NCBI GenBank assembly: GCA_964587195.1
Contig: CAZPKN010000001.1
Span: forward strand, 341-64,340
Source: an uncultured Gammaproteobacteria bacterium
GTDB taxonomy: Bacteria > Patescibacteriota > Patescibacteriia > Patescibacteriales > UBA12465
Direction of reading: 5' to 3'
DNA length: 64,000 nt
In this document: positions 3,827 to 58,160 of the stretch, piece by piece
How positions within the stretch are numbered: the first letter of the stretch is position 1
Layout of the letters: every line of letters begins with the position of its first letter
Notes under the pieces: generated by a model
Databases searched by the model: none
Told to the model about the DNA's origin: nothing
Seen by the model: the letters and a program-made list of their open reading frames with translations, nothing else
Position numbers and translations under genes: made by a program

Positions 3827-3913
3827 GGAGACGTGGCTGAGTGGTTGAAAGCACCGCACTCGAAATGCGGCATACTCGAAAGAGTATCAGGGGTTCAAAT
3901 CCTCTCGTCTCCG
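3827..3913 (+). tRNA. tRNA-Ser (anticodon CGA)
   Basis: Cloverleaf drawn by hand. Acceptor GGAGACG/CGTCTCC, anticodon loop CTCGAAA, long variable arm, T-loop TTCAAAT. CCA is not encoded. Confidence 0.8.
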
Positions 3914-6110: not shown

Positions 6111-6242
6111 ATTTTATAAATAAAAAGTTGAGACAAAACATTATAAATTTATGAAGGCGACGGCGGAGCGTATTTGGAAAGTATAAAGGTTTTGGAAAAG
6201 AGGGTTGGGGGGGGATAAGAATAAATTTTAAATGAATGAGAT

Positions 6243-7643: not shown

Positions 7644-7662
7644 TTTTTAAAATAAAATTTTT

Positions 7663-8055: not shown

Positions 8056-8085
8056 TATTTATAAGGTAGGGGCAAATGCAATAGT

Positions 8086-9114
8086 TTGATTAATATGAAA
8101 ATTGAATCAACTAACAACGAAGTGGGAATTGAACTTCATTATAGTTTTAACGATATTGATATTCATTCAATAAACTTTTATATTAGGAATTCTTGCTCAT
8201 TAGCTCAAGCGGAAATTATATCTTACCTAATAAATACTTTATACCCGGATGAGCATTTTGAGATTTTAACATTACCTCCGCAAAAAGGGTCTTTTAACGA
8301 TATAACTATCATAAAATTTTTAAACAAAAATCCCGGGATTATTCTTTCAGTTATTTCTTTAATATTGCCCGCATTACTGTATAATAGCCAGCTTAAAGCA
8401 AATGAAACAACAACAGATTATAATATTTTACAAGTTATTGAAAAATGTAAAGATTTAGATTCCAATTTCCCCGATGAAGTTTTGCAAAAAATAAATAGCA
8501 TTTGCGATTCGTATTATCCCAGAAAACAAAAAAATATTTTTTACGAATCTATAATATCCGATAAAAACATAGTTAGCATTGAGCCGAAGATATTTGCAAA
8601 TGATAAGAATGTTTTCAACGCACAAATAAAGCAAGAAGAGTTTGGAGATTATATAGAAGACATTCCAAAAGAAAAAGAGTTCCTAAAAGTTGAAATGACT
8701 GGCAACATACAATTGTCGCAACCTGTTATTGATAGGCAGCAACAATATGGCAGGGGTTTAGCGTGGAGGGGCGTATACTACGGGAATGATATCTCAGATG
8801 AAAACAATAATCTTATTGTTGAGGATGGTGAAAACATATTTTTTTATATGCAGGATGATGAATATAAAAAACAAATATTAAATCAGGAAATATCGTTTAC
8901 TAGTGGTGATAATATAGGTGTTATTTTTGATGTCAGTCGTTACTATGATTATGTAAATGATAAATTTGGCAAACCTAGATTATACGTGAAAAGAGTAGTC
9001 TCTCACAATGACAACCTCGTACAACACAAAAAGGACCTGGCTTTAAAACAAGAATTAAAAAAATTTGAAGAAAAGAATAAAAACCAGTCATCGCTTTTTG
9101 ATATTATAAAGTAA
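8086..9114 (+). CDS. hypothetical protein (342 aa) with one internal hydrophobic segment
   Basis: Long ORF with no recognisable motif. Hydrophobic stretch PGIILSVISLILPALLY. Very AT-rich. Ends 4 nt before the hsdS start. Confidence 0.4.
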   Translation: MINMKIESTNNEVGIELHYSFNDIDIHSINFYIRNSCSLAQAEIISYLINTLYPDEHFEILTLPPQKGSFNDITIIKFLNKNPGIILSVISLILPALLYNSQLKANETTTDYNILQVIEKCKDLDSNFPDEVLQKINSICDSYYPRKQKNIFYESIISDKNIVSIEPKIFANDKNVFNAQIKQEEFGDYIEDIPKEKEFLKVEMTGNIQLSQPVIDRQQQYGRGLAWRGVYYGNDISDENNNLIVEDGENIFFYMQDDEYKKQILNQEISFTSGDNIGVIFDVSRYYDYVNDKFGKPRLYVKRVVSHNDNLVQHKKDLALKQELKKFEEKNKNQSSLFDIIK

Positions 9115-9118
9115 TGCT

Positions 9119-10300
9119 ATGAAAACTAACCAGCCCAAAATCGAAAAGCTAATTTCAGAACTATGCCCGAATGGTGTGGAGTTTTTGGAAATTGATAGTT
9201 TGTGGATTAGGGCACCAAAATCAAAGCTCGGCGTCGCCCAAGTCAAAGAGCTTGGTGATGGTGAAAACATTTGCTTTACTTCTGGTAAAAATATTTTTTA
9301 TGTCGATAAATATCTTGTTGACGGTGAGTATATTTTTATGAATGATGGTGGAAGCGCTGATACAAAATATAATAAAGGTAAGGCGTATTATACGGATCAC
9401 ACTTTTACATTTACATGTGACAAAATAAAAATATTGCCAAAATTTCTTTATTTTTTCTTAAAAGAAAATGAAAAACATATAAATGATGTTTTATTTAAAG
9501 GAACGGGGTTAAAAAATTTAAATAAAAAAGCATTTGCAAACTTTCAAATCCCCATCCCACCCCTTGAAATACAAGAAGAAATCGTAAAAATTCTTGATAA
9601 TTTTACGGAGCTAGAAGCGGAGCTAGAAGCGGAGCTAGAAGCGGAGCTAGAAGCGAGAAAGAAGCAATATGAGCATTATCGCACTAGTCTTTTCCTAAAG
9701 AATAAAAATAATGAAATTAAGACGCTTGGCGAAGTTTGTTGTATTGGTTCTGGCGGGACACCATCAAAATCAAAGAAAGGATATTGGGAAAATGGAGACA
9801 TCCCCTGGATTAAGTCTGAGTCATGTAAAAATGAATCGGTACGTGTAGCAAATAGTTTTATTACAAGTATTGGTCTTAAAAATTCAAGTGCAAAATTATT
9901 AGATAAAAACACAACATTAATTGCTCTTGTCGGAGCTACTATTTTTAAAACTGCGTTTTTAGAGTTTGAGGCTAGTACAAATCAAAACATAGCAAGTATT
10001 AAATCTAATGACCAATCGATGTTGAGTGATAAGTTTATTTTTTATTATTTAACTAGTCTTTATTCAAGCTTAAAGAATAATATGAAAGATTATGGGATGC
10101 TCAACTTAACAACACTTAGGTCTTTCAAAATCCCCGTCCCACCCATCGCTGAACAAGAACGCATCGTTTCAATCCTTGATAAATTCGATGCCCTTGTTAA
10201 TGATATTTCAATCGGTTTACCCGCTGAACTTAAGGCTCGTCGTAAGCAATATGAATATTACCGAAACAAGCTTTTGATGTTTAAAGAATTAACAAAATAG
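9119..10300 (+). CDS. hsdS: type I restriction-modification system specificity subunit
   Basis: Two target-recognition domains, each followed by a conserved helix (IPIPPLEIQEEIVKILD / FKIPVPPIAEQERIVSILD). Central and C-terminal ...RKKQYEHYR / RRKQYEYYR conserved regions. Confidence 0.8.
   Translation: MKTNQPKIEKLISELCPNGVEFLEIDSLWIRAPKSKLGVAQVKELGDGENICFTSGKNIFYVDKYLVDGEYIFMNDGGSADTKYNKGKAYYTDHTFTFTCDKIKILPKFLYFFLKENEKHINDVLFKGTGLKNLNKKAFANFQIPIPPLEIQEEIVKILDNFTELEAELEAELEAELEARKKQYEHYRTSLFLKNKNNEIKTLGEVCCIGSGGTPSKSKKGYWENGDIPWIKSESCKNESVRVANSFITSIGLKNSSAKLLDKNTTLIALVGATIFKTAFLEFEASTNQNIASIKSNDQSMLSDKFIFYYLTSLYSSLKNNMKDYGMLNLTTLRSFKIPVPPIAEQERIVSILDKFDALVNDISIGLPAELKARRKQYEYYRNKLLMFKELTK
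9608..9655 (+). repeat. perfect 12-bp tandem repeat x4 (gagctagaagcg) encoding (ELEA)4 in the central conserved region of hsdS
   Basis: Four identical in-frame units counted directly. The position corresponds to the spacer-length-determining repeats of type I S subunits. Confidence 0.9.
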
Positions 10301-10301
10301 T

Positions 10302-11390
10302 ATGGAAAAGTTTGATTCCATCGAAAATCTTGCTAAAGAAATAAAAAAGAAATTAAAGGTCACTAAGAAAAAGAAGATAGGAGCTCTTTATGCATTTAAT
10401 TCTACCGGAAAAACAAGATTATCAACGATATTAAATGAATCAAATAGAGAAGATGAGGAAAGCGACGGTAAAATAAAAGTTCTTTGTTATAACGCTTTCT
10501 TAGAAGACATGTTTATATGGGACAATGAGAATTATGTTCTTTCTTTTAATACAAATTCATGGATTGTAAAATTAGTAATTGATCAAGGTTTGGATGGAGA
10601 TATTATTGACAATTTCAAAGATATTATAAACTCAAATATCGAGCCCTCATTTGACTTTACTAATGGGGAAATTGCTTTTAATGTAGTTTCAGGAGATGAC
10701 AACAGTAAAAATAATATTAAAATTTCAAAGGGAGAGGAAAGTATTTTCATATGGTCATTTTTTTATACTATCCTAAAATCCGCAATTGAGACTCTAAACA
10801 TTGAGGAGTCAAATAGGCCTACGCCTGTTTTTAATGACCTAGGGCGCATAGTCATTGACGATCCAGTATCCTCTCTAGATGATACCAAGATAATAACAAT
10901 GACAATTAAGCTTGTGGAAACCATAGAATCATTTGAAGGTGACTCTCTATCGTTCTTTATTGCCACGCATCACGCTTTATTCTACAATATTTTAGTTAAT
11001 TCTTTTAAAAGAAATAGTGGTTGTAATTTTAAATCATACAACCTTATAAAAGATAACTATACCTTTCAACTTTTAAAACAAGGGGACACTCCTTTCTCTT
11101 ATCACCTATCAATAAAAAAAATTATTCAGGAAGCTATAATAGGTAATCATATTGAAAGATATCACTTCAATCTTTTTAGAAGCCTACTTGAGAAAACATC
11201 TACCTTCTTGGGATACGACGATTGGAGAAAATGCGTGCCGAGCGGAAGAAAGGCGGAATTTATAAGACTTCTTAATTTGTATAGCCATGGCAAATTATCA
11301 GATATTGAGAGCAGACAGATGTCTGGAGAGGATAAAATTATTTTTGAAGAAACATTCACTAATTTTGTCTCAGATTTTAAATGGGGTTAA
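10302..11390 (+). CDS. PrrC-like anticodon nuclease (ABC-ATPase N-domain + C-terminal ACNase-like domain)
   Basis: Walker A AFNSTGKTRL, signature-like ISKGEES, Walker B/D-loop IVIDDPVSSLDD. C-terminal R-x3-E (FRSLLEK) and downstream YSHGK, as in the PrrC catalytic triad. Sits between hsdS and hsdR, the canonical prrC position. Confidence 0.55.
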   Translation: MEKFDSIENLAKEIKKKLKVTKKKKIGALYAFNSTGKTRLSTILNESNREDEESDGKIKVLCYNAFLEDMFIWDNENYVLSFNTNSWIVKLVIDQGLDGDIIDNFKDIINSNIEPSFDFTNGEIAFNVVSGDDNSKNNIKISKGEESIFIWSFFYTILKSAIETLNIEESNRPTPVFNDLGRIVIDDPVSSLDDTKIITMTIKLVETIESFEGDSLSFFIATHHALFYNILVNSFKRNSGCNFKSYNLIKDNYTFQLLKQGDTPFSYHLSIKKIIQEAIIGNHIERYHFNLFRSLLEKTSTFLGYDDWRKCVPSGRKAEFIRLLNLYSHGKLSDIESRQMSGEDKIIFEETFTNFVSDFKWG

Positions 11391-11435
11391 TAATATACGA
11401 ATATTACCGAAACAAGCTTTTAACTTTTAAAGAAT

Positions 11436-12311
11436 ATGAATCATAAAATTTCCATCCGTTTTTTTAACGACCGAGAAGTTCGGGCTGTTTGGGATGAAAA
11501 AAATAATAAATGGTTATTTAGTGTATTAGATATTATTGCCGTTCTTACAGATCAAAATAATTACACTAAGACCCGTAACTATTGGAAATACCTCAAGGCC
11601 AAGCTTAAGAAAGAAAAAAGTCAGGTGGTTAGTTCTACTACCCAACTGAAAATTTTGGCAAATGATGGAAAACGGTATTTAACCGATATGCTGGACTATG
11701 ACGGTATTATCGCTTTGGGTAAAAATTTCCCCGGAACAAAGGCTAACCGATTTATTAATTGGTTTACTTTTAGCGACGAGGGTATAGACGGGAAAAGCAA
11801 AACCAAGGCTTATGCTTTGTTCGAAAGTTCGCTAATTAACAACATAGAAATAGGGACCACGAAAGGACTAAAGCAGATTCACGCCTACTTATTCGGCGGT
11901 CTTTATAATTTTGCCGGACAAATTAGAAAAAAGAATATTTCTAAAGGCGGTTTTCAGTTTGCTATGGCGCAGTATTTAGAAAACACACTTCAGCAGATTG
12001 AAAAAATGCCGGAGAAAACTTTTGAAGAAATTGTTGATAAATATGTAGAAATGAATATCGCTCATCCATTTATGGAAGGAAATGGCCGAACGACTCGCAT
12101 CTGGCTCGATTTAATTCTTAAAAAACGCTTAAAAAAATGCGTGGACTGGAGCAAGATAAGTAAGAAGGACTACATCGGTGCGATGATACGAAGCCCTAAA
12201 AACAGTCTAAAACTAAAAAATTTACTAAAAAAATCCTTAACTAACAAAATCAACAATCGTGAAATGTTTATGAAAGGAATAGATTATTCATATTATTACG
12301 AAGAGGATTAA
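11436..12311 (+). CDS. Bro-N domain - Fic/Doc family protein
   Basis: N-terminal Bro-N-like segment ([33 protein letters not shown]). Fic motif [12 protein letters not shown]. Confidence 0.7.
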
Positions 12312-12317
12312 AAAACT

Positions 12318-15300
12318 ATGCCAAACCAAGAACACAGCTCCGCTGAAAATTCGGCGGGAAGTTATAATCTAGTCGCTTCAAGTACTCAAAGCACCGTCGT
12401 GGCTGAGTATGTTTCTGATAAAAAAAGAGCGTTTAAGTATCAAAGCGAAGCCGAACTTGAAAAAGCTTTCATTAAGCAGTTAGAAGCCCAGGCTTATGAA
12501 TATTTAAAAATCGCCTCAGAAGATGATTTGCTTTTGAATTTACGAAAACAGCTCGAAAAGCTAAATGATTATAATTTTAGCGATTTAGAATGGAATCGAT
12601 TTTTTAAAGCCGAAATTGCTAACCAAAGCCAGGGTATTGAAGAAAAAACCGCTACCATTCAGGAAGATTATAAAAAAAATCTAATTCTTGATGACGGCTC
12701 AACTAGAAATATTTATCTCATTAAAAAAGACAGTATCCACGATAATAGTTTACAAGTTATTAACCAATATTCAAGCGAAGATGGCGAACGATTAAACCGC
12801 TATGATGTAACGATTTTAGTAAACGGCCTACCGCTTATCCATATCGAGCTAAAAAGACGAGGAGTAGCCATACAAGAAGCATTTAATCAGATAAATAGAT
12901 ACCAAAGAGAAAGCTTTTGGGCCGCTTCCGGTCTGTTTGAATATGTCCAGTTATTTATTATCTCAAACGGAACCCATACTAAATACTATAGCAATACTAC
13001 CAGATCACAGCACATCAAAGAGTCCGGCGAAGGAAAACAGAAAAAGGGCAGGCGGACAAGTAATAGCTTTGAGTTTACGAGCTGGTGGGCAGACGCCGCT
13101 AATCGGCCGATTACCGACTTAATTGATTTTACTAAAACATTTTTCGCCAAGCATGCCGTTTTAAATATTTTAACAAAATATTGCGTCTTTACCTCGGACA
13201 AATTACTGTTAGTAATGCGCCCCTACCAAATCGTCGCCACGGAAAGAATTTTAAATCGCATCGAAATAAGTACAAACTACAAAAAATTCGGAACCGTTGA
13301 GGCGGGCGGCTATGTTTGGCATACGACCGGGTCCGGAAAAACCCTAACTAGTTTTAAAACCGCTCAGCTTGCTAGCAAATTATCTTATGTTGATAAGGTT
13401 TTGTTTGTTGTTGATAGAAAAGATCTCGATTATCAAACCATGCAGGAATATGACAAGTTTGAAAAAGGGGCCGCAAGCAGTAATGTCAGTACCGCTATTT
13501 TAAAAAGACAACTAGAAGACAGTAGCTCAAGAATTATCGTCACAACTATTCAAAAACTCGATCGCTTTATCGCTAAAAACTCCGGACATACCGTTTTTGA
13601 CGGACATATTGTTATTATCTTTGACGAGTGCCACCGCTCACAATTCGGCGAAATGCACGCCGGCATAGTTAAGGCCTTTAAAAAATATCATCTATTCGGT
13701 TTTACCGGAACGCCGATTTTTGCCGCTAACGCTTCAACCGGCGGTCGTCCCGATTTTAAAACAACCGAGCAGGCTTTCGGTTCAAAACTTCATACCTATA
13801 CCATAGTTGACGCTATTTCCGATAAAAATGTTCTACCTTTTAAAGTCGATTATGTTTCAACTGTCCGCGAAGCCGAAGACATTGAAGATAAAAAAGTTAG
13901 CGATATTGATAGAGAGGCCGTTTTAGCCGCCCCGGAAAGACTCGAGAATATCGTTAAATATATTATTGAACATTTCGACCAAAAAACTAAACGAAATAGC
14001 TTTTATAAACTAAAAGAACGGAGGCTAGCCGGTTTTAATTCAATTTTTGCCGTTAGTTCAATTGAAGTTGCTAAAAAATATTATTTAGAATTTAAAAAAC
14101 AATTAGCCGAAGTTCCGAGCGATAAAAAATTAAAAATAGGAACTATTTTTAGTTTCGGGGTTAACGATGAAGACGGAGACGGAATGATGGATGAAAATTC
14201 CGAGGACACTAGCGGGCTTGATACTAGCTCTAGAGATTTTTTAGAAAGCGCTATTTCCGATTATAATGAAATGTTCGGAACATCTTACGATACCTCCTCC
14301 GATAAATTCCAAAATTACTATAAAGATGTCAGCGAAAAAGTAAAGAAAAGAGAGCTTGATGTCTTAATTGTCGTTAATATGTTTTTGACCGGGTTTGATG
14401 CGACTACTCTTAATACCCTTTGGGTTGATAAAAATCTGCGCTCGCACGGACTGCTCCAAGCTTATTCTAGGACTAACCGCATCTTAAACAGCATCAAAAC
14501 TTTCGGTAATATCGTTTGTTTTAGAAATTTAGAAAAAGCGACTAACGAAGCGATTGCCCTATTCGGCGATAAAGAAGCGGGCGGGATTGTTTTGCTTAGA
14601 TCTTATCAAGACTATTACCACGGCTATAAAGATGGCGATAAAGAATTTCGAGGTTATGTTAGCTTAGTCGACGAGCTAATGGCAAAATTCCCGGTCGGGA
14701 TAAGAATTGATAGCGAGCAAGCGCAAAAAGAATTCATTAATCTCTACGGCGGAATTTTAAGACTAAGAAACATTTTAACAACTTTCGACGAGTTTATCGG
14801 CGATGAAATATTTACCCAATACGATATTCAGGACTATCATAGCATGTACATTGATTTGTATAATGAACTTCGCAAAGTTAAAGAGAGCGAGAAAGAAAAT
14901 ATTAATGATGATATTGTTTTCGAAATGGAACTTATTAAACAAGTTGATATCAATATTGATTATATTTTAAGTCTTATTAAAATCTACCATGAAGATAATA
15001 CAAAAAATAAAGACAGCTTGATGGATATTAATAAAGCGATTGACGCGAGCGTTGAGCTTAGAAATAAAAAAGATTTAATTAACCAGTTTATCAGCTCGCT
15101 TGATATTAATTCAAAGATTGATGAAGATTGGCGGAAATTTGTTGCTGAAAAAAAGATTGAAGAACTGGAAAAAATTATCGCTAACGAAAATTTAGACAAA
15201 GAAGCGACTTATGCGCTTATTGATAACGCCTTTAAAGACGGCTATGTCCCGACTACTGGAACGACTATTACCAAAATTTTACCACCCGTATCAAGATTTT

Positions 15301-15392
15301 CTCCCGACGGAAAAATGACTATTAAGCGCGAAACTGTTCTTAGAAAACTAGCTAGCTTCTTCGACAGATTCTTTGATATTTCTGAGAGGTAG
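12318..15392 (+). CDS. hsdR: type I restriction-modification system restriction subunit (SF2 helicase/endonuclease)
   Basis: 1024 aa. HsdR N-terminal nuclease region, helicase motif I TGSGKT, DEAD-box-like IIFDECHRSQFG, motif VI-like QAYSRTNR. Confidence 0.9.
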   Translation: MPNQEHSSAENSAGSYNLVASSTQSTVVAEYVSDKKRAFKYQSEAELEKAFIKQLEAQAYEYLKIASEDDLLLNLRKQLEKLNDYNFSDLEWNRFFKAEIANQSQGIEEKTATIQEDYKKNLILDDGSTRNIYLIKKDSIHDNSLQVINQYSSEDGERLNRYDVTILVNGLPLIHIELKRRGVAIQEAFNQINRYQRESFWAASGLFEYVQLFIISNGTHTKYYSNTTRSQHIKESGEGKQKKGRRTSNSFEFTSWWADAANRPITDLIDFTKTFFAKHAVLNILTKYCVFTSDKLLLVMRPYQIVATERILNRIEISTNYKKFGTVEAGGYVWHTTGSGKTLTSFKTAQLASKLSYVDKVLFVVDRKDLDYQTMQEYDKFEKGAASSNVSTAILKRQLEDSSSRIIVTTIQKLDRFIAKNSGHTVFDGHIVIIFDECHRSQFGEMHAGIVKAFKKYHLFGFTGTPIFAANASTGGRPDFKTTEQAFGSKLHTYTIVDAISDKNVLPFKVDYVSTVREAEDIEDKKVSDIDREAVLAAPERLENIVKYIIEHFDQKTKRNSFYKLKERRLAGFNSIFAVSSIEVAKKYYLEFKKQLAEVPSDKKLKIGTIFSFGVNDEDGDGMMDENSEDTSGLDTSSRDFLESAISDYNEMFGTSYDTSSDKFQNYYKDVSEKVKKRELDVLIVVNMFLTGFDATTLNTLWVDKNLRSHGLLQAYSRTNRILNSIKTFGNIVCFRNLEKATNEAIALFGDKEAGGIVLLRSYQDYYHGYKDGDKEFRGYVSLVDELMAKFPVGIRIDSEQAQKEFINLYGGILRLRNILTTFDEFIGDEIFTQYDIQDYHSMYIDLYNELRKVKESEKENINDDIVFEMELIKQVDINIDYILSLIKIYHEDNTKNKDSLMDINKAIDASVELRNKKDLINQFISSLDINSKIDEDWRKFVAEKKIEELEKIIANENLDKEATYALIDNAFKDGYVPTTGTTITKILPPVSRFSPDGKMTIKRETVLRKLASFFDRFFDISER

Positions 15393-22534: not shown

Positions 22535-22756
22535 AAAAATGTTTATTACATTGTTATAGTTTAATAGTATATGAAAAATAGCCCATACTCAAGGCTATTT
22601 AAAACTTAACAATTTTTCTTTCCTCCGCTCGCCCGCTTCGTTGGAGCTTAGCGAGGCGAGCCGGCTGCTAATTTGAATCATCTATTCATATAAACCCGAC
22701 CACAGGGGTCGGGCTTATTTTTGGCGGAGGGGAATCAACGGTATTAGAAATAAAAA

Positions 22757-23887
22757 TTAATTGAAACAATTAAAATATTCCCAGAGAATGAAAACTCGGT
22801 TTCTCGAAAATCCTGTTTTTTCCTTTAATATATCTATATTCATTAATTCTTTGGTTAAAGCATTGGCCGTAGGAGTGGTTATTTTTAAAGCTTTCTCAAT
22901 ATCTTTAGTATCAACAACCGGATCAGTAAATAAATACATTAATAAATCTTTAGCTAATTTACTTCTTTTTCCCATTTTTTCAATAATGGCACATTCGTAT
23001 TTTTGTCTTAGCTTAATTATTTTTTCAAAAGTATTAATACCGTCTTTCGATGTAGTAATAACACCTGCTAGGAAAAATTTTATCCATTGTTCTATTTCGT
23101 TTGATTTTCGGACCATGGTTAAAGAGTCGTAATATGAAGCTCTGTTTTTTTCAAAAAAATGAGAGAGATATAAAGTTGGCTTTTTTAGTATTCCCAAGCT
23201 AACTAAATGAAGAGTTATTAAAAGTCTGCCAATTCTTCCGTTTCCATCTAAGAACGGGTGTATGGTTTCAAATTGATAATGACTTAAAGCTATCTTGATT
23301 AAATTTGGAATATCTAAATTTTCATTATGCCAAAATTTTTCAAGATCACTTAATAAATCCATTACCTGTGAGTCATGCGGAGGAATAAAAAAAGCGTCTG
23401 ACAAGCTAGATCCCCCAATCCAATTTTGGCTCTTTCTTATTTCTCCTGTTTTTTTGTGTTTGCCTCTGGTGTTGGATAGAAGAATTTTGTGGGTATTTTT
23501 TACAAGCCGCATCGACAGAGGGAGTTGCTTTAATTCGGCTATGGCGGAATTAATCGCCTTTACATAATTTTGAACTTCTTGCCAGTCATCTCTTTTTTCG
23601 GGATCAATGTCTTCTTCGGAAAGCAGAGCTTCATCCATTTCAGTTTTTGTGCCTTCAATTTTACTGGATAAAACAGCTTCTTTATACACATGCATTTGAA
23701 TAAAAAAATCCACATCAGGCACTAAAAAAGAATAGGCGTTGAGTTCGCCTAAATATCTAGTGGCTTCCTCTAAAAGCATATTTATTTTTTTATCTTCCCA
23801 AACAAAATCTTTGTTTATAGGGTTAGGGAGGAAGCTTTTATATTGATATTGTTGTTCAAAAACACCTGCTTTAAAATTATTATTCAT
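22757..23887 (-). CDS. Fic family protein, class II (N-terminal inhibitory motif SxxxEG present)
   Basis: Fic motif [15 protein letters not shown]. Upstream SSKIEGT fits the [ST]xxxE[GN] autoinhibitory helix. Flanked by tRNA-Asp-linked repeat modules. Confidence 0.75.
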
Positions 23888-24006
23888 AGCTTTAACTATA
23901 TTATTTTATAATTAAAGTTTAGCACTTAACTTTAATTAAGTCAAAACATAATAAAAGTTGAAAAAAGTAAAACAAAAAATCATCTAACATTAGATAATTT
24001 TTTTGA

Positions 24007-24310
24007 TGGCGGAATGGACGGGACTCACTACCCGGTCCTCCCGGTCCGCCCAGGGCGGACATCGCTCAGACTTTCTCGTCCCGACGCGAGCCAAACTATT
24101 GGCTCACTTCCATTCCGTATTCAAAAATAAACCCGACCACAAGGGTCGGGCTTATTTTTGGCGGAATGGACGGGACTCACTACCCGGTCCTCCCGGTCCG
24201 CCCAGGGCGGACATCGCTCAGACTTTCTCGTCCCGACGCGAGCCAAACTATTGGCTCACTTCCATTCCGTATTCAAAAATAAACCCGACCACAAGGGTCG
24301 GGCTTATTTT
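24007..24310 (-). repeat. tandem direct repeat, 2 x 152 bp; each unit has 20 nt of the tRNA-Asp 3' end, ~95 bp GC-rich sequence and a copy of the tRNA terminator hairpin
   Basis: Units 24007-24158 and 24159-24310 are essentially identical. tggcggaatggacgggactc equals the tRNA-Asp 3' end. Hairpin aaacccgaccacaagggtcgggcttattttt is repeated, and a diverged third copy is at ~22690-22745. Confidence 0.85.
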
Positions 24311-24387
24311 TGGCGGAATGGACGGGACTCGAACCCGCGACCTCCTGCGTGACAGGCAGGCGTTCTAACCAACTGAACTACCACTCC
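24311..24387 (-). tRNA. tRNA-Asp (anticodon GTC), CCA encoded
   Basis: Reverse complement GGAGTGGTAGTTCAGTTGGTTAGAACGCCTGCCTGTCACGCAGGAGGTCGCGGGTTCGAGTCCCGTCCATTCCGCCA. Near-identical architecture to E. coli tRNA-Asp. Confidence 0.85.
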
Positions 24388-28101: not shown

Positions 28102-28205
28102 AAATATTAGAAGATACTAGGATAATCATAGGGTTAATTTAGGAAAAAATCAATCATAATTTAGTTTTTTTTCGTAAACAAAAACACAGAATTTTATCCT
28201 GTGTT

Positions 28206-28473
28206 TTTGTTATGGGTGGGCGCACAAGCCTGCCTGCCGGCAGGCAGGGATTTCCGCCCTCGCTTTTCGCCGGAAATGCGAAAAGCTCACTTGTCCAGAC
28301 CGGCCGCTAAACGCTCGCCAACTCGCGTTTATCGTCGCTCCCCTTTTCGCTCGAGCCCTGCCTGCCGGCAGGCAGGTTCCGCTCTCGCTCAAGACTCGCT
28401 CGCCGCTAGTTCGACTACTATGCCGTTCCGGCATTAAACAAAAAAGAAGCCATTGGCTTCTTTTTTGTTTATG
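28206..28473 (-). repeat. tRNA-Val-linked GC-rich module with two copies of the 20-bp palindrome CCTGCCTGCCGGCAGGCAGG (28229-28248, 28357-28376) and a 12-nt copy of the tRNA-Val 3' end (28217-28228)
   Basis: tgggcgcacaag at 28217 equals the tRNA-Val 3' end at 28474. Region is about 60% GC in an AT-rich genome. Homologous to the modules at tRNA-Gly and tRNA-Ala. ORF-track ORFs here are artefacts. Confidence 0.6.
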
Positions 28474-28547
28474 TGGGCGCACAAGGATTCGAACCCTGGA
28501 CCCCTTCGGTGTAAACGAAGTGCTCTAACCAGCTGAGCTATGCGCCC
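28474..28547 (-). tRNA. tRNA-Val (anticodon TAC)
   Basis: Reverse complement GGGCGCATAGCTCAGCTGGTTAGAGCACTTCGTTTACACCGAAGGGGTCCAGGGTTCGAATCCTTGTGCGCCCA. Anticodon loop TTTACAC. Confidence 0.8.
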
Positions 28548-36072: not shown

Positions 36073-36753
36073 ATGAGAAAAAAAATCTTTGCTTTTAGCC
36101 TTTGTTTAATTATCTTTTTAGCAGTTCTAATCATCCCGACCATATCAAGCGCCCAAAGCTCAATCATTGCTTCTTCTAGCGAAAAATATGAATACGGGCA
36201 ATACGGCCTTAATGACATGTTAAGTATAGCGACTTGGGCGGCCAAATGGATACTGGGAATAGTCGGCTCGCTAACTCTTTTAATGTTTGTCTATGGCGGC
36301 TTTATCTTATTAACTTCGGCTGGTAGTAATGAAAAGGTCGGAGAAGCAAAAAAAATAATTACCGCGGCGGTAATCGGTTTAATTATTGTTTTCAGTAGCG
36401 CCATGATAATTAGGTTTGTTTCTACTTCGCTCGGATTAAGTTGGTCCGGAGAAAAATTAGAAACGGCCTCTAGCCAAAATACAGGAGGAGTAATAAAAGC
36501 AACTGACTCAACTTGCGCAAATTATAAATTATCTAGCGGAGAAACAGCGGGATCATCAGGATTTAGTTGCGTTGAATCAAGCAGTGCTGGCTATTGTCTT
36601 AACGGGCTCTGCCCAAGTTATGGCAGCAGCATAAAATGCTGCGCGCCAAAATGTGAGACCAAGCATCCTGGATGGACATGTACTACCGATACCGACGGAA
36701 AAACTTGTGTCGATTATCTATGTAAAGGGGCGGGGAAATGTTGCAAAAAATAA
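36073..36753 (+). CDS. TrbC/VirB2-like pilin-family protein with Cys-rich C-terminal extension
   Basis: Signal peptide, then a conserved two-helix core (GSLTLLMFVYGGFILLTSAGSNEKVGEAKKIITAAVIGLIIVF) shared with the 40.5-43.1 kb paralogs. C-terminal ~90 aa contain about 16 Cys. Confidence 0.5.
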   Translation: MRKKIFAFSLCLIIFLAVLIIPTISSAQSSIIASSSEKYEYGQYGLNDMLSIATWAAKWILGIVGSLTLLMFVYGGFILLTSAGSNEKVGEAKKIITAAVIGLIIVFSSAMIIRFVSTSLGLSWSGEKLETASSQNTGGVIKATDSTCANYKLSSGETAGSSGFSCVESSSAGYCLNGLCPSYGSSIKCCAPKCETKHPGWTCTTDTDGKTCVDYLCKGAGKCCKK

Positions 36754-40514: not shown

Positions 40515-40910
40515 ATGAAAAAAATATCAAAACACTTACTATCTTTAGCCATAGTTTCTTTATTGGTTTTACCAGTATTCGCCTTAAATGTTCACGCTCA
40601 AGATGACAACCCAATTACCAATGGCATAACAGCTGTCGAAAGTAAATTCAATGGCGTTTTAGGATCTACTAATACCGACCCCCGAGAAGTAATCGCTAGT
40701 ATTATCAATATTGCCCTAGGATTTCTTGGGATAATCGCGGTAGGAATCGTTTTAATCGGCGGTTTTAAATGGATGACGGCGGCTGGAAACGAAGATAAAG
40801 TCGAAGAAGCTAAGAAAATTCTTGGCGCTGGCGTTATCGGTTTAGTTATCGTTTTATCCGCTTGGGCTCTAGCATCATACGTCATTAACACTATCCAAAA
40901 CGAAATATAG
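40515..40910 (+). CDS. TrbC/VirB2-like pilin-family small secreted membrane protein (paralog 1 of 6)
   Basis: Signal peptide plus conserved core IINIALGFLGIIAVGIVLIGGFKWMTAAGNEDKVEEAKKILGAGVIGLVIVLSAWALASYV. Confidence 0.55.
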   Translation: MKKISKHLLSLAIVSLLVLPVFALNVHAQDDNPITNGITAVESKFNGVLGSTNTDPREVIASIINIALGFLGIIAVGIVLIGGFKWMTAAGNEDKVEEAKKILGAGVIGLVIVLSAWALASYVINTIQNEI

Positions 40911-41013
40911 CTCTACAAAATAAGTAGTCCTCATTATCTAATGGGGATTGCTATTTTGGGCTCTAAACAACTTTACTTATTTTGAGCCCAAAGTAGTGAT
41001 TAATCTTATTTTT

Positions 41014-41433
41014 ATGTTAAAAAAAATTGTTTTAACGGTTTTTTTAAGCTTCCTATTAGGCGGTCTTTTACTTGGTTTTTGTACAAATCCGGCTAGTGCT
41101 CAAGAAGAAAATTATGGCCTTAATGCTACCGCCGGCCAAATAGACGCTTTCAAAGAACAAGTAAATAATTCAACTCTTCCTGAAAATTTTATCCAAACTC
41201 GCGCCGGAGAAGTTATCGGCTTCGTACTCTCGCTGGTCGGTATTCTTTTTCTAGGCTTAATGATTTACGCTGGATTGCTCTGGATGACTGCTCAAGGCAA
41301 TGAACAAAAGGTAGAAAAAGCTAAAGACTTATTAATTAATGCGGTAGTCGGTTTAATTATTGTCTTCGCCGCTTACGCTATAACTGCCTTTGTCGGTGAG
41401 TTTGTTAGTAAAGAGTTATTAGCTTCTAAATAG
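41014..41433 (+). CDS. TrbC/VirB2-like pilin-family protein (paralog 2)
   Basis: Same core (LWMTAQGNEQKVEKAKDLLINAVVGLIIVFAAYAIT). Start set at MLKKIVL, so the ORF-track upstream extension is rejected. Confidence 0.55.
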   Translation: MLKKIVLTVFLSFLLGGLLLGFCTNPASAQEENYGLNATAGQIDAFKEQVNNSTLPENFIQTRAGEVIGFVLSLVGILFLGLMIYAGLLWMTAQGNEQKVEKAKDLLINAVVGLIIVFAAYAITAFVGEFVSKELLASK

Positions 41434-41441
41434 CAAAAACA

Positions 41442-41876
41442 TTGACCTTCATGTCTAGACTTTCTATTCATTATTCAAAACTAACTTATTTAAAAAAGGC
41501 TTTTTTAGTTGGTTTTTGCTTACTCGGATTATCTTTATTGAGCTTAACGGCGTCGGCCTATGAATTTAAAAGTGACAGCGGACTCTCAACTACTGGGAAA
41601 GCAGCGGGATATAACGAAGGCGCAACGCCTGATCCGGCCGTAATAGCCGGACAAGTTGTTCAGGCAGTTTTAAGTGTTTTAGGGATAGTTTTTCTCGCTT
41701 TTATGATTTACGCCGGGATAACTTGGATGACTGCTCAGGGCGATGACCAAAAATCCATGAAAGCCAAAAGAGTCATTGAAGGCGCTATAACCGGCCTTAT
41801 TATTGTTATCGCCGCTTACGCTATTTCCTACTTTATTATTGGTTATTTTGCCGCTACCGGGACAATAAAAAACTAG
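41442..41876 (+). CDS. TrbC/VirB2-like pilin-family protein (paralog 3)
   Basis: Core ITWMTAQGDDQKSMKAKRVIEGAITGLIIVIAAYAIS. Confidence 0.55.
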   Translation: MTFMSRLSIHYSKLTYLKKAFLVGFCLLGLSLLSLTASAYEFKSDSGLSTTGKAAGYNEGATPDPAVIAGQVVQAVLSVLGIVFLAFMIYAGITWMTAQGDDQKSMKAKRVIEGAITGLIIVIAAYAISYFIIGYFAATGTIKN

Positions 41877-41883
41877 ATAATAT

Positions 41884-42267
41884 ATGAAGTCTTTATCAAA
41901 AAAAATAATTACCGCTTTATTTTTCATATTTGTTATGTCCGCTTCTTCGGCTCTAGCTCAAGGAGGCATAGAGTCAGCTTTTGATAACGCAAAAACAGTC
42001 GCCAGCAGCTCTGGTTATGTCGAGCAATCGGTTAATACCTTAGCTGGGGATATTATTCGCCTGGCCTTAACAATTCTCGGGACTTTATTTGTAGTTTTTA
42101 TAATTTATGCCGGATTTCTCTGGTTAACCGCTGCCGGCAACGAACAAAGAGTTGATAAGGCTAAAAAAATAATTTTTGAATCAACTATCGGCCTAATTAT
42201 CGTTATCGCCGCCTACGCTATAACTTACTTTATTGTTTCCGCCTTCAAAGGGCAGATTAACCTTTAA
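41884..42267 (+). CDS. TrbC/VirB2-like pilin-family protein (paralog 4)
   Basis: Core LWLTAAGNEQRVDKAKKIIFESTIGLIIVIAAYAIT. Confidence 0.55.
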   Translation: MKSLSKKIITALFFIFVMSASSALAQGGIESAFDNAKTVASSSGYVEQSVNTLAGDIIRLALTILGTLFVVFIIYAGFLWLTAAGNEQRVDKAKKIIFESTIGLIIVIAAYAITYFIVSAFKGQINL

Positions 42268-42272
42268 ATATT

Positions 42273-42665
42273 ATGAAAAAACATTTTAAAACTGTATCAT
42301 CCCTGCTAATAATGATAGTTATATTAGTTTTACCTTATTTTGTATTTGGACAGAGCGCTGGGACGGAAGACGGTATGCTAGGCAGATTAAATACCGTCGC
42401 TAAAACTGGCGGATATGTAACTGGTGGTGAGAGCGAGCTAGCTTATACAATTGGCTTAATCATTCAGGTTGTTCTCGGACTTTTAGGCGCCATCTTCATT
42501 ATTCTTATGGTTTATGCCGGCTATACCTGGATGACAGCCGCTGGAAACGAACCAAAAATAGACAAAGCTAAAGACATGATACAAACGGCGATTATCGGCT
42601 TAGTTATAGTTTTATCATCTTGGGCAATTTGGACATTTATTTTCACTAATTTCATTAGTAAATAA
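42273..42665 (+). CDS. TrbC/VirB2-like pilin-family protein (paralog 5)
   Basis: Core TWMTAAGNEPKIDKAKDMIQTAIIGLVIVLSSWAIW. Confidence 0.55.
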   Translation: MKKHFKTVSSLLIMIVILVLPYFVFGQSAGTEDGMLGRLNTVAKTGGYVTGGESELAYTIGLIIQVVLGLLGAIFIILMVYAGYTWMTAAGNEPKIDKAKDMIQTAIIGLVIVLSSWAIWTFIFTNFISK

Positions 42666-42691
42666 AAGCCCATTTTTTAATACAGATATAT

Positions 42692-43123
42692 ATGAAAAAA
42701 ATTATTAGCTTCTTAATTCTTCTCGGACTAGCGATTGTGATTATTCCTAGTGCTTCGGCTCAACTTATAGATGAAAAAACGCTAGGATACATGAATGATA
42801 TTTCTGGGAGCGTCCAGGAAACCGCCGGTTTCGGAGATGCTTCGGTCGGCAGTATTATTGCCGCTATTATAAGAGCTATTCTCGGACTACTAGCCGCTAT
42901 TTTTATGGTTCTAATGATTCTATCGGGCTTTAGATGGATGACGGCGGCTGGTAATGAAAGTCAGGTAGAAAAAGCTCAGGAAACGATTAAAGCGGCTTTA
43001 ATCGGATTAATAGTTGTTCTAGCTGCCTACGCCATAACCTACTACGTGTTTACCTATCTTCCCTTCAGCGCTGGACAGGCCGGCAGCGAAACGGGCAGCG
43101 GGCTAATAACATCTGGCTCATAG
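42692..43123 (+). CDS. TrbC/VirB2-like pilin-family protein (paralog 6)
   Basis: Core RWMTAAGNESQVEKAQETIKAALIGLIVVLAAYAIT. Confidence 0.55.
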   Translation: MKKIISFLILLGLAIVIIPSASAQLIDEKTLGYMNDISGSVQETAGFGDASVGSIIAAIIRAILGLLAAIFMVLMILSGFRWMTAAGNESQVEKAQETIKAALIGLIVVLAAYAITYYVFTYLPFSAGQAGSETGSGLITSGS

Positions 43124-43712: not shown

Positions 43713-43790
43713 GATTATTCCCCGCCTTTACCCCGATTATTACTTAATTTATTAAGTTTTCATCGATCTCCGGCGAGGCTCCTTTTTAAA

Positions 43791-43908
43791 GTTAAACATA
43801 TAATAATTACCAGTTTGGCTAATATTAGTAAAACTAGTAATTATTACATGCCAACTTCTTTGTCAAAGATCAATTTGTTAATAAATAATTATATCACAAA
43901 TAAACTAA
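43791..43908 (-). promoter_or_regulatory. conserved ~115-bp upstream element (copy 1), about 85% identical to 58046-58160, with -35/-10 and an inverted-repeat operator-like site
   Basis: The two copies were aligned directly. In gene orientation it contains TTGACA, an ATAATT-like -10, and inverted repeat CAGTTTggctaatattagtAAACTAG. Confidence 0.55.
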
Positions 43909-49502: not shown

Positions 49503-49653
49503 TCCAAGAGTTGACTTTAGGGACACTTTTTTATAGAATAATTATCAGTTACTAAAGATAGTTGAAGGGCTAATTATAATATTAATAGGCGGGGTAATCC
49601 CCGCTGAAGTGTGAAATTAATAGGCAGGCTTGCCTCGCTGAAGCGAAGCGAAA

Positions 49654-49725
49654 GCGGGTATCGTATAGTGGTTATTACCTAAGGTTTCCAACCTTATGAG
49701 AGGGGTCCGATTCCCCTTACCCGCT
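49654..49725 (+). tRNA. tRNA-Gly (anticodon TCC)
   Basis: GCGGGTATCGTATAGTGGTTATTACCTAAGGTTTCCAACCTTATGAGAGGGGTCCGATTCCCCTTACCCGCT. Close to E. coli tRNA-Gly(UCC). Confidence 0.85.
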
Positions 49726-50184
49726 CAATTAAAAACAACATCCGACAGGGTGTTGTTTTTAATTGTATGGAATGAATGGGAATCGGACTGGTTGAAAGTG
49801 AGCGAGGACTGAGGTCGGAAGACCGAGGGACGAAGCGAACGTCGGACGGCTTGCCTTGAATGGCAAGCCGAACGCCAACCCCGGACAAGTGAACGAGGCG
49901 CTTTCCGGCGCCGAGTGAGCGCGGAACCTGCCTGCCGGCAGGCAGGTTCCCCTTACCCGCTCAATTAAAAACAACATCCGACAGGGTGTTGTTTTTAATT
50001 GTATGGAATGAATGGGAATCGGACTGGTTGAAAGTGAGCGAGGACTGAGGTCGGAAGACCGAGGGACGAAGCGAACGTCGGACGGCTTGCCTTGAATGGC
50101 AAGCCGAACGCCAACCCCGGACAAGTGAACGAGGCGCTTTCCGGCGCCGAGTGAGCGCGGAACCTGCCTGCCGGTAGGCAGCTA
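49711..50184 (+). repeat. tandem direct repeat 2 x 237 bp downstream of tRNA-Gly; each unit has the tRNA 3' 15 nt, a terminator hairpin, and a GC-rich segment ending in CCTGCCTGCCGGCAGGCAGG
   Basis: Units 49711-49947 and 49948-50184 are near-identical. Palindrome at 49927-49946 and a variant at 50163-50181. The first unit begins inside the genuine tRNA. ORF-track ORFs here are artefacts. Confidence 0.85.
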
Positions 50185-56960: not shown

Positions 56961-57083
56961 TTGAACATTAGATTGCCGAATTTGTGATGATGCAAACAAA
57001 TAAAAAAGGACATTATATCTCGCCTTCAACTTTATCTGCCTTTCGCGTCTCACTTCCAACTAGTTCAAGTCCTTTATTCCGAA

Positions 57084-57334
57084 TCAAACAAAACAAAAGA
57101 GCCTCACGCAGGTGAGGCTCTTTTGTTTGTGGACCATAAGGGACTTGGTCACCGTCGCTAAGTCTCGCTCGCCCGCTCTAGGTGGGCTTCGCTCACTAAG
57201 CGCCCCGACCCGGCCTCGGCGGCGCACAAGCCCGCCTACCGGCAGGCAGGTGCGCATCGCCTCCGGCATTCAAGTCCCTTTTTGCGAATCAGACATAACA
57301 AAAGAAGCTCACGCAGGTGAGCTTCTTTTGTTTG
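57084..57334 (-). repeat. tRNA-Ala-linked GC-rich module: terminator copy, palindrome variant CCCGCCTACCGGCAGGCAGG (57235-57254) and 17-nt copy of the tRNA-Ala 3' end (57130-57146)
   Basis: tggaccataagggactt is duplicated. Hairpin aaaagagcctcacgcaggtgaggctctttt is duplicated as aaaagaagctcacgcaggtgagcttctttt. Contains gcgcacaag, a Val-3'-like sequence, adjacent to the palindrome, as in the tRNA-Val module. Confidence 0.6.
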
Positions 57335-57408
57335 TGGACCATAAGGGACTTGAACCCTTGACCTCTTCCATGCCATGGAAGCGCTCTAGCCAACTGAGCT
57401 AATGGCCC
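57335..57408 (-). tRNA. tRNA-Ala (anticodon GGC)
   Basis: Reverse complement GGGCCATTAGCTCAGTTGGCTAGAGCGCTTCCATGGCATGGAAGAGGTCAAGGGTTCAAGTCCCTTATGGTCCA. Anticodon loop ATGGCAT. Confidence 0.8.
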
Positions 57409-57620: not shown

Positions 57621-58010
57621 CTATAACAACAAAATTATATTTGCCGTTATAGCAGCATAAAAAATTATTACTGCCAATACTCTGGCTCTTGGCCTTTGGG
57701 CCCAGGCAGCGGCAGCAACAAAAGCCGCAGCACTAGCCGATATTACGGCAGTCATTGCCGCTAAAGTATCAGCTGCGAAGACTCCCATAAGAGAGCTCGC
57801 CACTAAAGCAGCGAAAGCTGCCATTGCTACGATGGCGGCAGCATCAGATTGGTTTTTTTTATAAAGCCAGCCTGACGCTAGCATACTTATCACTGCAGCC
57901 ATGCTGCAGAATGCTGAAGCGGGCGCTCCTGTCGATAATATGATAGATTGCGCACTAACATAACCCGCAGCCCAAAAAGCTGCCAATAAAATAAAAATAA
58001 TCTTTTTCAT
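57621..58010 (-). CDS. Ala-rich small membrane protein (hypothetical)
   Basis: Signal/TM N-terminus, then 3-4 hydrophobic Ala-rich helices. Preceded by copy 2 of the conserved ~115-bp upstream element. Confidence 0.4.
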   Translation of the reverse strand: MKKIIFILLAAFWAAGYVSAQSIILSTGAPASAFCSMAAVISMLASGWLYKKNQSDAAAIVAMAAFAALVASSLMGVFAADTLAAMTAVISASAAAFVAAAAWAQRPRARVLAVIIFYAAITANIILLL

Positions 58011-58045
58011 TTTTCTTTACCGCTCCTAACGGCTTTTTTAATTTA

Positions 58046-58160
58046 GTTAAACATAGAATAATTACTAGTTTGGCTAATATTAGTAAAACTAGTACTTATT
58101 CCATGCTAACCGTCTTGTCAAAGAACGCTATTATTTACATAACAAATAATTATATCATAT
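58046..58160 (-). promoter_or_regulatory. conserved ~115-bp upstream element (copy 2), about 85% identical to 43791-43908
   Basis: Direct alignment with copy 1. Carries the same TTGACA / inverted-repeat arrangement. Confidence 0.55.

Follow-up and report, generated by a model that had tools for sequence, protein, structure and literature searches.

The GIY-YIG enzyme SegB, whose gene lies in the tRNA cluster of the T4/T6 phages, cleaves tRNA-containing DNA and, through recombination, drives the tRNA-segB unit to be amplified in tandem (PMC2330249, PMC13096335). The bacterial cassettes that are described below (L162, L235, L248 and L288-L300; numbers of this kind denote the loci used for comparison) resemble the SegB cassettes in having a GIY-YIG gene that adjoins a tRNA gene and in occurring in one or two tandem copies, but they encode only the catalytic domain (78-83 aa), lie in bacterial chromosomes and each carry a partial tRNA duplicate with a constant 20-bp palindrome. 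Two further systems are comparable. Integrative elements that target tRNA genes, together with the cis-mobilisable elements (CIMEs), duplicate the tRNA 3' end from the T-loop, provide a replacement tail and terminator, form tandem arrays and have non-autonomous derivatives. Arrays of repetitive extragenic palindromes (REPs) and bacterial interspersed mosaic elements (BIMEs), which occur with a REP-associated tyrosine transposase (RAYT), consist of GC-rich palindromic units in alternating orientation that are separated by linkers, follow the 3' ends of genes and vary in copy number. In this study, we analysed a 64-kb stretch of Patescibacteria DNA from contig CAZPKN010000001.1 (the window), in which short GC-rich modules follow five tRNA genes; they carry no nuclease gene and have the layout alone in common with the SegB system. 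We tentatively favour, with slightly less than even confidence, reading these modules as non-autonomous, selfish, gene-less cassettes that sit on tRNA tails in a Falkowbacteria-like (Patescibacteria) lineage and that are probably driven by a nuclease in trans, by a mechanism that we infer from their structure.

Calling with ARAGORN and Rfam gave eight tRNA genes in the window. Five of them are followed within 300 nt by an exact copy of their own 3' end (Ser, 17 nt; Asp, 20 nt and three copies in total; Val, 13 nt; Gly, 15-16 nt; Ala, 19 nt or, including the start of the terminator, 28 nt), which is far above the chance expectation, whereas in the control genes tRNA-Leu-GAG, tRNA-Leu-TAG and tRNA-Arg-CCT downstream matches to their own tails did not exceed 7 nt. 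The DNA between the tRNA and the copy has a GC content of 0.56-0.61 (0.49 at Ser) compared with 0.374 for the window as a whole. The pattern that had been proposed in the sequence-only reading of this DNA, i.e., exact tail copies, terminators and GC-rich non-coding DNA at five tRNA genes, was therefore borne out, as were its high GC content and the tandem arrangements at Gly (two units of 235 nt at a spacing of 236 nt) and Asp (two nearly identical units of 152 nt; Table 1). Two of its details have to be corrected. A tail copy ends the module at Ser, Asp, Val, Ala and the inner junction of the Gly array, but the Gly array itself ends in a degenerate palindrome; moreover, the second terminator is not a copy of the first at Val and after the last Asp copy, where a different terminator stands.

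The Val and Asp modules were reproduced base for base, in their outer parts on the gene side, in the assemblies of SRR3330210, SRR3330211 and SRR3330212, whose contigs stop inside these modules. This exact and independent reproduction from three sequencing runs means that the modules are real repeats rather than artefacts of one assembly. An assembly or adapter artefact was also ruled out by mutated variants, by the agreement of independent assemblies and by the occurrence of the palindrome in isolate genomes. The doubled state of the Gly module was seen in no second assembly, and the closest strain (L122) has one unit. It is reasonable to regard the open reading frames (ORFs) inside the modules as artefacts, as had been proposed, since they overlap tRNA genes and repeats.

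Each unit starts with a tRNA tail that begins in the T-loop and runs to the 3' end. It continues with a long terminator palindrome and with an inverted pseudo-copy of the tail that reaches to G53, and it is completed by a cargo that is rich in both GC and hairpins. The direct tail copy is present where another unit or a displaced old tail comes next, and its first nucleotide in tRNA numbering is 56 at Ala, 57 at Asp, 58 at Ser, 59 at Gly and 62 at Val, i.e., in the T-loop or just past it; when the inserted palindrome is discounted, the Gly and Val copies start at approximately 56-58. Because the adjoining unit provides the correct tail and terminator, the tRNA is always intact. The terminator that directly follows each tRNA is a long, near-perfect palindrome that is bordered by an A-tract and, at its opposite end, by a T-tract, and it could act in both directions of transcription. 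In the inverted pseudo-copy that comes after it, the exact part is the T-arm of the host tRNA and the end is the complement of G53. The exact matches span 11 nt at Gly (p~0.002), 12 nt at Ala and 9 nt at Asp in the window, and elsewhere 14 nt at Gly in L126 and L128, 15 nt at Ala in L128, 13 nt in L039 and 12 nt in L004; at Val and Ser only 6 nt matched, which is not significant, and the control tRNAs had no inverted copy. The inverted copy is host-specific, as it matches the odd T-loop of tRNA-Gly (GTCCGATT) and, in L129, the normal T-loop. Tail, terminator and inverted tail therefore make up one long hairpin, and the folding of the modules is very stable (z-scores of -6 to -9.5). The possibility that the inverted tail is the primer-binding site of a retro-element was rejected; only the T-arm is exact, and conservation is lowest in the part that would pair with the extreme 3' end of the tRNA. 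The start in the T-loop, the inverted copy ending at G53 and the limited sharing of a core among the modules, which is described below, are the new points of this analysis.

Direct tail repeats that start in the T-loop would be expected if the modules were miniature integrative elements that are mobilised in trans by a tyrosine or serine integrase whose gene lies elsewhere, with an attP site corresponding to the tRNA from the T-loop to the 3' end and with tandem accretion resembling that of CIMEs. Williams is said to have described the T-loop, in Nucleic Acids Research in 2002, as the classic location of integrase crossover in tRNA genes. Such elements would also account for the tandem arrays and for a tRNA-adjacent unit that brings its own terminator while the displaced tail keeps another (Val, Asp and L126); four partial tRNA-Thr halves in L029 are likewise typical of repeated integration. 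The direct repeats, which are comparable to attL and attR, are present at Ser, Asp, Val, the inner junction of Gly, Ala, L126 and L039, but are absent from the outer end of the Gly array and from the single units of L122 and L128, and single units without a direct repeat speak against an integrase. The recombinase that had been suspected was found neither among the 44 ORFs of at least 150 aa in the window nor, as a tyrosine or serine integrase, among the called genes in approximately 90 kb of distinct DNA from relatives. Furthermore, unlike integrative elements and CIMEs, one core is found here at four tRNA species with host-specific ends, which is not predicted for a sequence-specific integrase, the inverted tail copy is left unexplained, and elements as short as 150-270 bp offer practically no arm sites. 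We consider this explanation to be unlikely.

Comparisons between strains and samples revealed the behaviour of the units over time. In L122, whose flanking protein is 97% identical, there is one Gly unit compared with two in the window; the terminator beside its tRNA differs, and its outer end is formed by the same degenerate palindrome. The contig L301 belongs to the same population and reaches approximately 9 kb past the left end of the window. At tRNA-Cys(GCA), approximately 8.5 kb to the left of the window (L301:4269-4700 and L302:4062-4900), there is a module with the shared core and no palindrome, which is present as one unit in ERZ724082 (L301) and as two units with a 207-nt period in ERZ724084 (L302); this array ends with a tail, a terminator and an inverted copy, without a core. 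In the relative represented by L126 and L128 (72% identity), a core free of the palindrome lies at tRNA-Gly and is closest to the Val core of the window. In L126, it is preceded by a terminator that resembles the Val terminator T2 of the window and is followed by a displaced Gly tail and the native Gly terminator; judged by similarity, this arrangement indicates an exchange between the Val and Gly loci. The only unit at tRNA-Ala in L128 is the one that is old and decayed in the window, and L129 shows a trace that is still more decayed and AT-rich; old units evidently decay towards AT. A clean empty site was not found among the relatives, and the Ala locus of L129 keeps its decayed remnant. These comparisons show that units are gained and lost on short time scales, while cores move between tRNA loci on longer ones. 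The strain comparison that had been suggested as a check on copy number thus gave a positive result at Gly and Cys, and how the modules behave supports their description as tandemly arrayed DNA at tRNA 3' ends that is non-autonomous and lacks ORFs.

Part of this behaviour might need no mobility at all. Local tandem duplication, slippage and fold-back copying at the long palindromic terminators would explain the units, and gene conversion would explain the sequences that they share. In agreement with this, the changes in unit number are simple tandem gains or losses, the position of the inverted copies around a long palindrome is the one that fold-back template switching should produce, and the modules at Gly and Ala are old. 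Against it stand the GC-rich core of approximately 137 nt at four tRNA loci in a genome of 37% GC, the Val core that is closest to the Gly core of another genome, with terminators that were apparently swapped between those loci, the fragment of a Val tail in the Ala unit and the same layout in other phyla (L004 and L039). An incongruence of the core phylogeny with the host loci and genomes is also suggested by the alignments. An origin without any mobility is very unlikely.

The cargo of the Gly and Val modules aligns with the cargo at tRNA-Gly of L126, tRNA-Ala of L128 and tRNA-Cys of L301, and defines a shared core of approximately 137 nt (the E core) with conserved purine-rich motifs and two hairpins. 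In the window, the covariance model of this core, R1, matched both Gly copies and the Val copy strongly and the old Ala remnant weakly (scores in Table 1), and gave no match to the cargo at Asp, at Ser, in the newer Ala unit or in an orphan unit after a Fic gene. The earlier claim that the GC-rich parts are homologous between loci is consequently valid at Gly and Val and, to a weak degree, in the old Ala remnant, but not in the Asp, Ser and newer Ala units. Among 200 palindrome-selected loci searched with R1 (L210-L249 and the viral loci lay outside this search), the only match was L026, a Patescibacterium. According to these searches, the layout is general and the core is lineage-specific, and homology across all five loci is not supported. 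Nevertheless, one homologous core with host-specific ends at four tRNA hosts agrees well with the proposal that modules are shared between tRNA loci. The proposed junction between Ala and Val was also confirmed; positions 57221-57250 are 93% identical to 28219-28248, and in this segment the palindrome adjoins cttgtgcgcc. A decayed GIY-YIG gene as the source of the E core was rejected, as there was no signal in tblastn or hidden Markov model (HMM) searches and its GC- and purine-rich composition is unlike that of coding DNA at 37% GC.

Alternatively, the module could have a function, either within the transcription unit of the tRNA or as a small RNA; the extended palindromic terminator and the hairpin array might serve as an insulator, stabilise the 3' end or yield a structurally conserved RNA of the antisense or read-through kind. 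In hairpin 1, the pairing is kept in 96.7% of the cells, compared with 10-43% in slid controls, and 6/6 pairs changed on both sides. Additionally, the single-stranded motifs are conserved across hosts, the folds have the high stability given above, and modules are kept at the same tRNAs in relatives at 66-72% protein identity. However, the helix was picked by scanning the alignment on which its pairing was then scored, and the pairing of palindromes can persist through self-correction by template switching without any selection, so the covariation of hairpin 1 alone is no proof of function. In Rfam 15, only the tRNAs reached the gathering score, and even at E<=1 the search over the Gly and Val modules gave only hairpin noise. 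A scan inside the modules revealed no promoter-like site, and a strong terminator stands between the module and the tRNA. The difference in copy number among near-identical strains, the AT-rich decay in a relative (L129) and the unrelated cargo at Asp, Ser and Ala also argue against a function. Of the structured RNA that had been named as an alternative, one covarying hairpin is left, with neither an Rfam match nor an internal promoter-like site to accompany it, and we regard this explanation as quite unlikely.

The Gly, Val and Ala cassettes of the window contain the palindrome CCTGCCTGCCGGCAGGCAGG, which is perfect at 28229, 28357 and 49927 and has two mismatches at 50163 and 57231; none would be expected by chance in the window. 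It had been proposed as a candidate recombinase-binding core of the modules, and a count of its copies at and away from tRNA 3' ends had been suggested as a check. The proposal was not supported. The palindrome is absent from the Asp, Ser, Cys and L126-Gly modules, which still array or vary, and comparison with the homologous cores shows it as a clean insertion of 20 nt in the core at Val; the copy at the right end of Gly and Val is missing in L126. In an unbiased genome set, 12 of 121 copies interrupt tRNA-derived sequence, i.e., approximately 90% lie outside it. When one genome per species was considered, the palindrome was found in at least 120 stretches, compared with approximately 0.5 per 596 Gb that would be expected by chance at an even base composition by our own estimate, and a metagenome scan with the palindrome and four extra bases also gave at least 120 stretches. 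The phyla among the matches listed include Patescibacteria, Bacteroidota (including isolates), Omnitrophota, Planctomycetota, Proteobacteria and others. There are 274 occurrences in 250 collected loci; it is also present in 35 stretches of viral contigs, and one contig of 29.5 kb has six copies. Its flanks are not conserved. Compared with an uninterrupted paralogous site in the same locus, it added exactly 20 nt without a target duplication in 21/21 cases. Judged from these alignments, the palindrome is a later, separate and exact 20-nt insertion that landed in three modules and is not their core.

Short GC-rich palindromes in AT-rich genomes are known as the mobile GC clusters of yeast mitochondria, the PstI palindromes of Neurospora mitochondrial DNA and the Rickettsia palindromic elements. 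They are found near or inside RNA genes as well as in frame in protein genes, measure approximately 30-150 bp and are lineage-restricted, and some of them duplicate their target. The 20-bp palindrome resembles them in that it lies in frame in L060 (PACRQAG), and a second palindrome lies in a recJ-like gene in L032. In contrast to these elements, it measures exactly 20 nt, makes no duplication and occurs in many phyla and in phages. We found no description of the palindrome, or of GIY-YIG cassettes that contain partial duplicates of a tRNA, in open-access text. As a 20-mer common to several phyla, the palindrome could be new in kind, while miniature palindromic repeats and free-standing GIY-YIG homing genes are kinds that are already known.

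Mobility of single-stranded hairpins was considered for both the modules and the palindrome, i.e., a REP/BIME-like or IS200/IS605-type system that is served by an HUH (Y1) transposase encoded elsewhere. As in BIMEs, palindromic units (tail, terminator and inverted tail) alternate with linkers and are arrayed downstream of genes, the palindrome inserts without a target duplication, and it is mildly enriched in hairpin contexts (17% compared with 6% of random sites). Neither a Y1 transposase nor a RAYT was found in the window or among the families that are enriched near the palindrome across approximately 275 loci, and no target tetranucleotide is conserved at the flanks of the palindrome. Moreover, the palindrome is identical across phyla, whereas REPs are species-specific, the palindromic unit of the modules consists of the host tRNA tail with its terminator, and the module ends are tRNA sequence of the host rather than element sequence. 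A transposase of this type is, in our view, a highly doubtful explanation.

Other models of insertion were rejected. Strict targeting of hairpin loops by the palindrome does not apply, since the enrichment is only a partial effect. Four cases from GTDB had 7-bp flanking repeats, which would suggest a target-site duplication, but these repeats lie inside short tandem-repeat arrays, and none of the 21 empty-site cases had one. An IS91-like insertion beside GTTC fits the T-loop junctions, but the insertions of the palindrome in D-loops, anticodon loops and non-tRNA sites have no GTTC. The hallmarks of miniature inverted-repeat transposable elements were absent as well; there is no target duplication, and the inverted repeats that surround the modules derive from the host tRNA and change with it.

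The palindrome is often found inside arrays of 6-14 nt tandem repeats (viral L253, L255, L261, L271 and L276 as well as L045, L080, L082 and L101), and within such repeats it appears to be flanked by direct repeats. Several loci that carry the 20-bp palindrome, from different phyla, also contain another GC-rich palindrome, TCCGCCAGCTGGCGGA; the latter forms the centre of a long hairpin in L040 and is the palindrome that lies in frame in the recJ-like gene of L032. At L060:3861-4180, the in-frame 20-bp palindrome is accompanied by a GIY-YIG domain inside an HsdS-like ORF, which looks like an in-frame domain insertion. Apparently full-length tRNAs that contain the palindrome, with no second copy in view, were observed at L254:8616, L277:2284 and L085:67. 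The palindrome occupies the variable-loop position in two of them, which are phage tRNA-Met genes, and the D-loop in the third, a tRNA that lies on a contig of 137 bp. Where the variable loop normally lies, a tRNA might tolerate such a 20-nt hairpin as an additional arm.

The ORFs within 1.5 kb of the palindrome were clustered across approximately 275 loci, and only one gene family was enriched beside it: a protein of 78-83 aa in 23 loci at a median distance of 19 nt. This protein is a bare GIY-YIG catalytic domain (PF01541 match). Two types of cassette recur, which are mirror images of each other. In the 5' type, a tRNA 5' fragment with the palindrome in its D-loop or anticodon loop is followed by the GIY-YIG gene and then by the intact tRNA. 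In the 3' type, the intact tRNA is followed by a terminator, the GIY-YIG gene, a partial tRNA in which the palindrome stands between GGTTCGA and TTCC, and a terminator, sometimes in tandem. GIY-YIG cassettes with a layout equivalent to that of the window modules were found at L106, L118, L162, L235, L248 and L288-L300. In a reciprocal test, for which homologues of the protein were picked without regard to the palindrome, the 3' layout was present at tRNA-Leu(CAA) in 13/13 loci; these include complete genomes of cultured Flavobacterium, the palindrome is perfect or degenerate, and one or two tandem cassettes are present depending on the sample. Cultured carriers of such cassettes are Flavobacterium azooxidireducens (CP096205, near 1.860 Mb) and Flavobacterium sp. 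IMCC34852 (CP121446), with GIY-YIG proteins of 82-90 aa.

The window modules correspond to the 3' layout, except that non-coding cargo replaces the nuclease gene. The tRNA itself is intact, and the palindrome splits the displaced tail, at Val between positions 61 and 62 and at Gly between positions 58 and 59, the latter being the same tRNA position as in the 3' cassettes. In all of the cassettes that were examined, the palindrome lies in the displaced, partial tRNA copy. In L039, a GIY-YIG remnant upstream and a module of the window type downstream are found at one tRNA-Val. A different array was observed at L029:4661-5250, where tRNA-Thr is followed by four different partial tRNA-Thr 3' halves, the last of which is interrupted by the palindrome in the T-loop; it looks like the result of repeated invasions of one tRNA gene.

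These correspondences, together with the anatomy of the units, their shared core, their differences between strains and the separate insertion of the palindrome, are the reasons for favouring gene-less selfish cassettes. The mechanism would begin with a nuclease, for which the 78-83 aa GIY-YIG family acting in trans is the most likely candidate, that cuts the tRNA gene in the T-loop. Repair would then copy a cassette from another locus by means of the conserved T-arm homology, which would restore the tRNA and displace the old tail. Fold-back copying or self-correction at the palindromic terminator would make or maintain the inverted tail copy, and unequal recombination between the repeated tail-terminator segments would alter the number of units. 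It may be speculated that the palindrome in the displaced copy blocks re-cutting or breaks the homology that would otherwise delete the cassette.

Several observations weigh against selfish cassettes that are driven by this nuclease. A GIY-YIG gene or remnant was found neither in the 64-kb window (tblastn and HMM searches) nor in the loci of the relatives L121-L129 (approximately 67 kb, with L126 and L128 overlapping), nor was such a gene among the called genes of L301-L303 (approximately 45 kb). The Asp, Ser and Cys arrays have no palindrome, and the link to GIY-YIG is thus one of layout only. The E core has no sequence relation to the GIY-YIG cassettes, which in turn have no inverted copy. 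The Gly and Ala modules are common to relatives at 66-72% protein identity, and their history is therefore largely vertical. The single units at Gly in L122 and at Ala in L128 have an inverted copy and no direct tail copy, which simple T-loop insertion does not predict. Finally, the covarying hairpin and the conserved single-stranded motifs could mean function rather than selfishness.

A wider reading takes CCTGCCTGCCGGCAGGCAGG as a minimal mobile DNA that is put, without target duplication, into breaks made by GIY-YIG nucleases that consist of the catalytic domain only. Both would have spread across phyla and phages and would invade essential tRNA genes by a partial duplication that disables the spare copy, and the modules of the window would be a gene-less, lineage-specific offshoot of the same process of break and repair. 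We hold this to be possible but doubtful. If the readings outlined here are true, they show how selfish DNA colonises essential tRNA genes in very small genomes without lethality, namely by bringing along a tail and a terminator as replacements. A sequence of 20 bases that is identical across many phyla and phages and is tied to a tiny nuclease would point to an unrecognised and very widespread system of break and repair or homing, and the cultured Flavobacterium genomes with complete cassettes would open this system to direct study. Moreover, the modules explain the breaks of short-read assemblies at the tRNA genes of these organisms, while annotation is affected by the palindrome and the partial tRNA copies, which give rise to false ORFs and mask pseudo-tRNAs.

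Table 1. Features of the tRNA-associated modules in the window and sites of the second palindrome in the comparison loci.
Feature	Position	Strand	Remarks
tRNA-Gly(TCC), intact	49654-49725	+	last 15 nt, 49711-49725 (tRNA positions 59-73), are the first tail copy
Gly terminator, copy 1	49726-49765	+	palindrome with a stem of ~18 bp, A-tract and T-tract; could terminate in both directions
Inverted tRNA-Gly 3'-end pseudo-copy	49768-49788	+	exact core gggaatcggac 49778-49788; end is the complement of G53
E core, copy 1, GC-rich	49789-49926	+	hairpin 1 49848-49869, hairpin 2 49897-49912; R1 127 bits
Perfect 20-bp palindrome	49927-49946	+	between tRNA positions 58 and 59 of the tail copy
Direct tRNA-Gly tail copy ttccccttacccgct	49947-49961	+	
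Gly terminator, copy 2	49962-50001	+	
Inverted tRNA-Gly 3'-end pseudo-copy, copy 2	50004-50024	+	
E core, copy 2	50025-50162	+	R1 127 bits
Degenerate palindrome at the array end	50163-50182	+	two mismatches; same end in the related strain L122
tRNA-Val(TAC), intact	28473-28547	-	
Val terminator T1	28433-28472	-	adjoins the tRNA
E core at Val	28249-28408	-	R1 119 bits; precise 20-nt palindrome insertion 28357-28376, absent in homologous cores
Perfect palindrome in the displaced tRNA-Val tail copy	28229-28248	-	between positions 61 and 62
Direct tRNA-Val tail copy cttgtgcgcccac	28216-28228	-	
Val terminator T2	28173-28215	-	unlike T1; resembles the terminator beside tRNA-Gly in the relative L126
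tRNA-Asp(GTC), intact	24311-24387	-	tail 24311-24330 is copy 1 of 3
Asp unit 1	24159-24310	-	terminator 24274-24310; GC-rich cargo; tail copy 24159-24178
Inverted tail copy of Asp unit 1	24261-24269 and 24230-24237	-	split by hairpin 24238-24260
Asp unit 2	24007-24158	-	98% identical to unit 1; third tail copy 24007-24026
Different terminator after the last Asp tail copy	23973-24006	-	presumably the original one
Orphan unit after the Fic gene	22622-22736	-	tRNA-like 3' end (gattcccctccgcca), Asp-type terminator (93% identical), GC-rich cargo
tRNA-Ala(GGC), intact	57334-57408	-	
Newer Ala unit	57148-57333	-	terminator 57297-57333; inverted T-arm copy 57269-57279; GC-rich cargo unrelated to the E core
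Degenerate palindrome of the newer Ala unit	57231-57250	-	adjoins a Val-type tail fragment 57221-57230
Displaced tRNA-Ala tail copy and diverged terminator copy	57091-57147	-	paired changes in the stem
Older, decayed Ala unit	57023-57074	-	inverted T-arm copy 57063-57074; E-core remnant common to L128; R1 E = 0.035
tRNA-Ser(CGA), intact	3827-3914	+	
Ser unit	3919-4093	+	terminator 3919-3952; diverged inverted tail 3960-3983; hairpin-rich cargo; tail copy 4077-4093; no palindrome and no E-core match
Second palindrome TCCGCCAGCTGGCGGA	L011:3333, L015:2858, L016:161, L032:967, L040:2963 and 4469, L108:1248, L110:435		

A Fic/DOC gene (22757-23887) lies between the Asp array and the orphan unit, whose tRNA-like 3' end derives from another tRNA; the gene may be the cargo of an older and larger insertion. 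Directly downstream of the tRNA-Ser module, there is a type I restriction-modification island (4533-15392) with HsdM, HsdS and HsdR as well as embedded genes for an AAA ATPase and a Fic protein, and no second copy of the tRNA-Ser tail was found at its far end. Upstream of tRNA-Gly, between a promoter-like site and the tRNA, two GC-rich hairpins, each followed by a GAAG-type motif, occupy 49588-49634 and are absent in L126. An AT-rich repeat of 80 nt is present with 89% identity in the intergenic segments 43790-43869 and 58045-58124, and one of its copies lies upstream of a gene for a small membrane protein (57621-58010). Approximately six small tandem genes of the T4SS-pilin family (PF18895) are located at 36073-36753 and 40760-43045 of the window and are conserved in L128 and L129.

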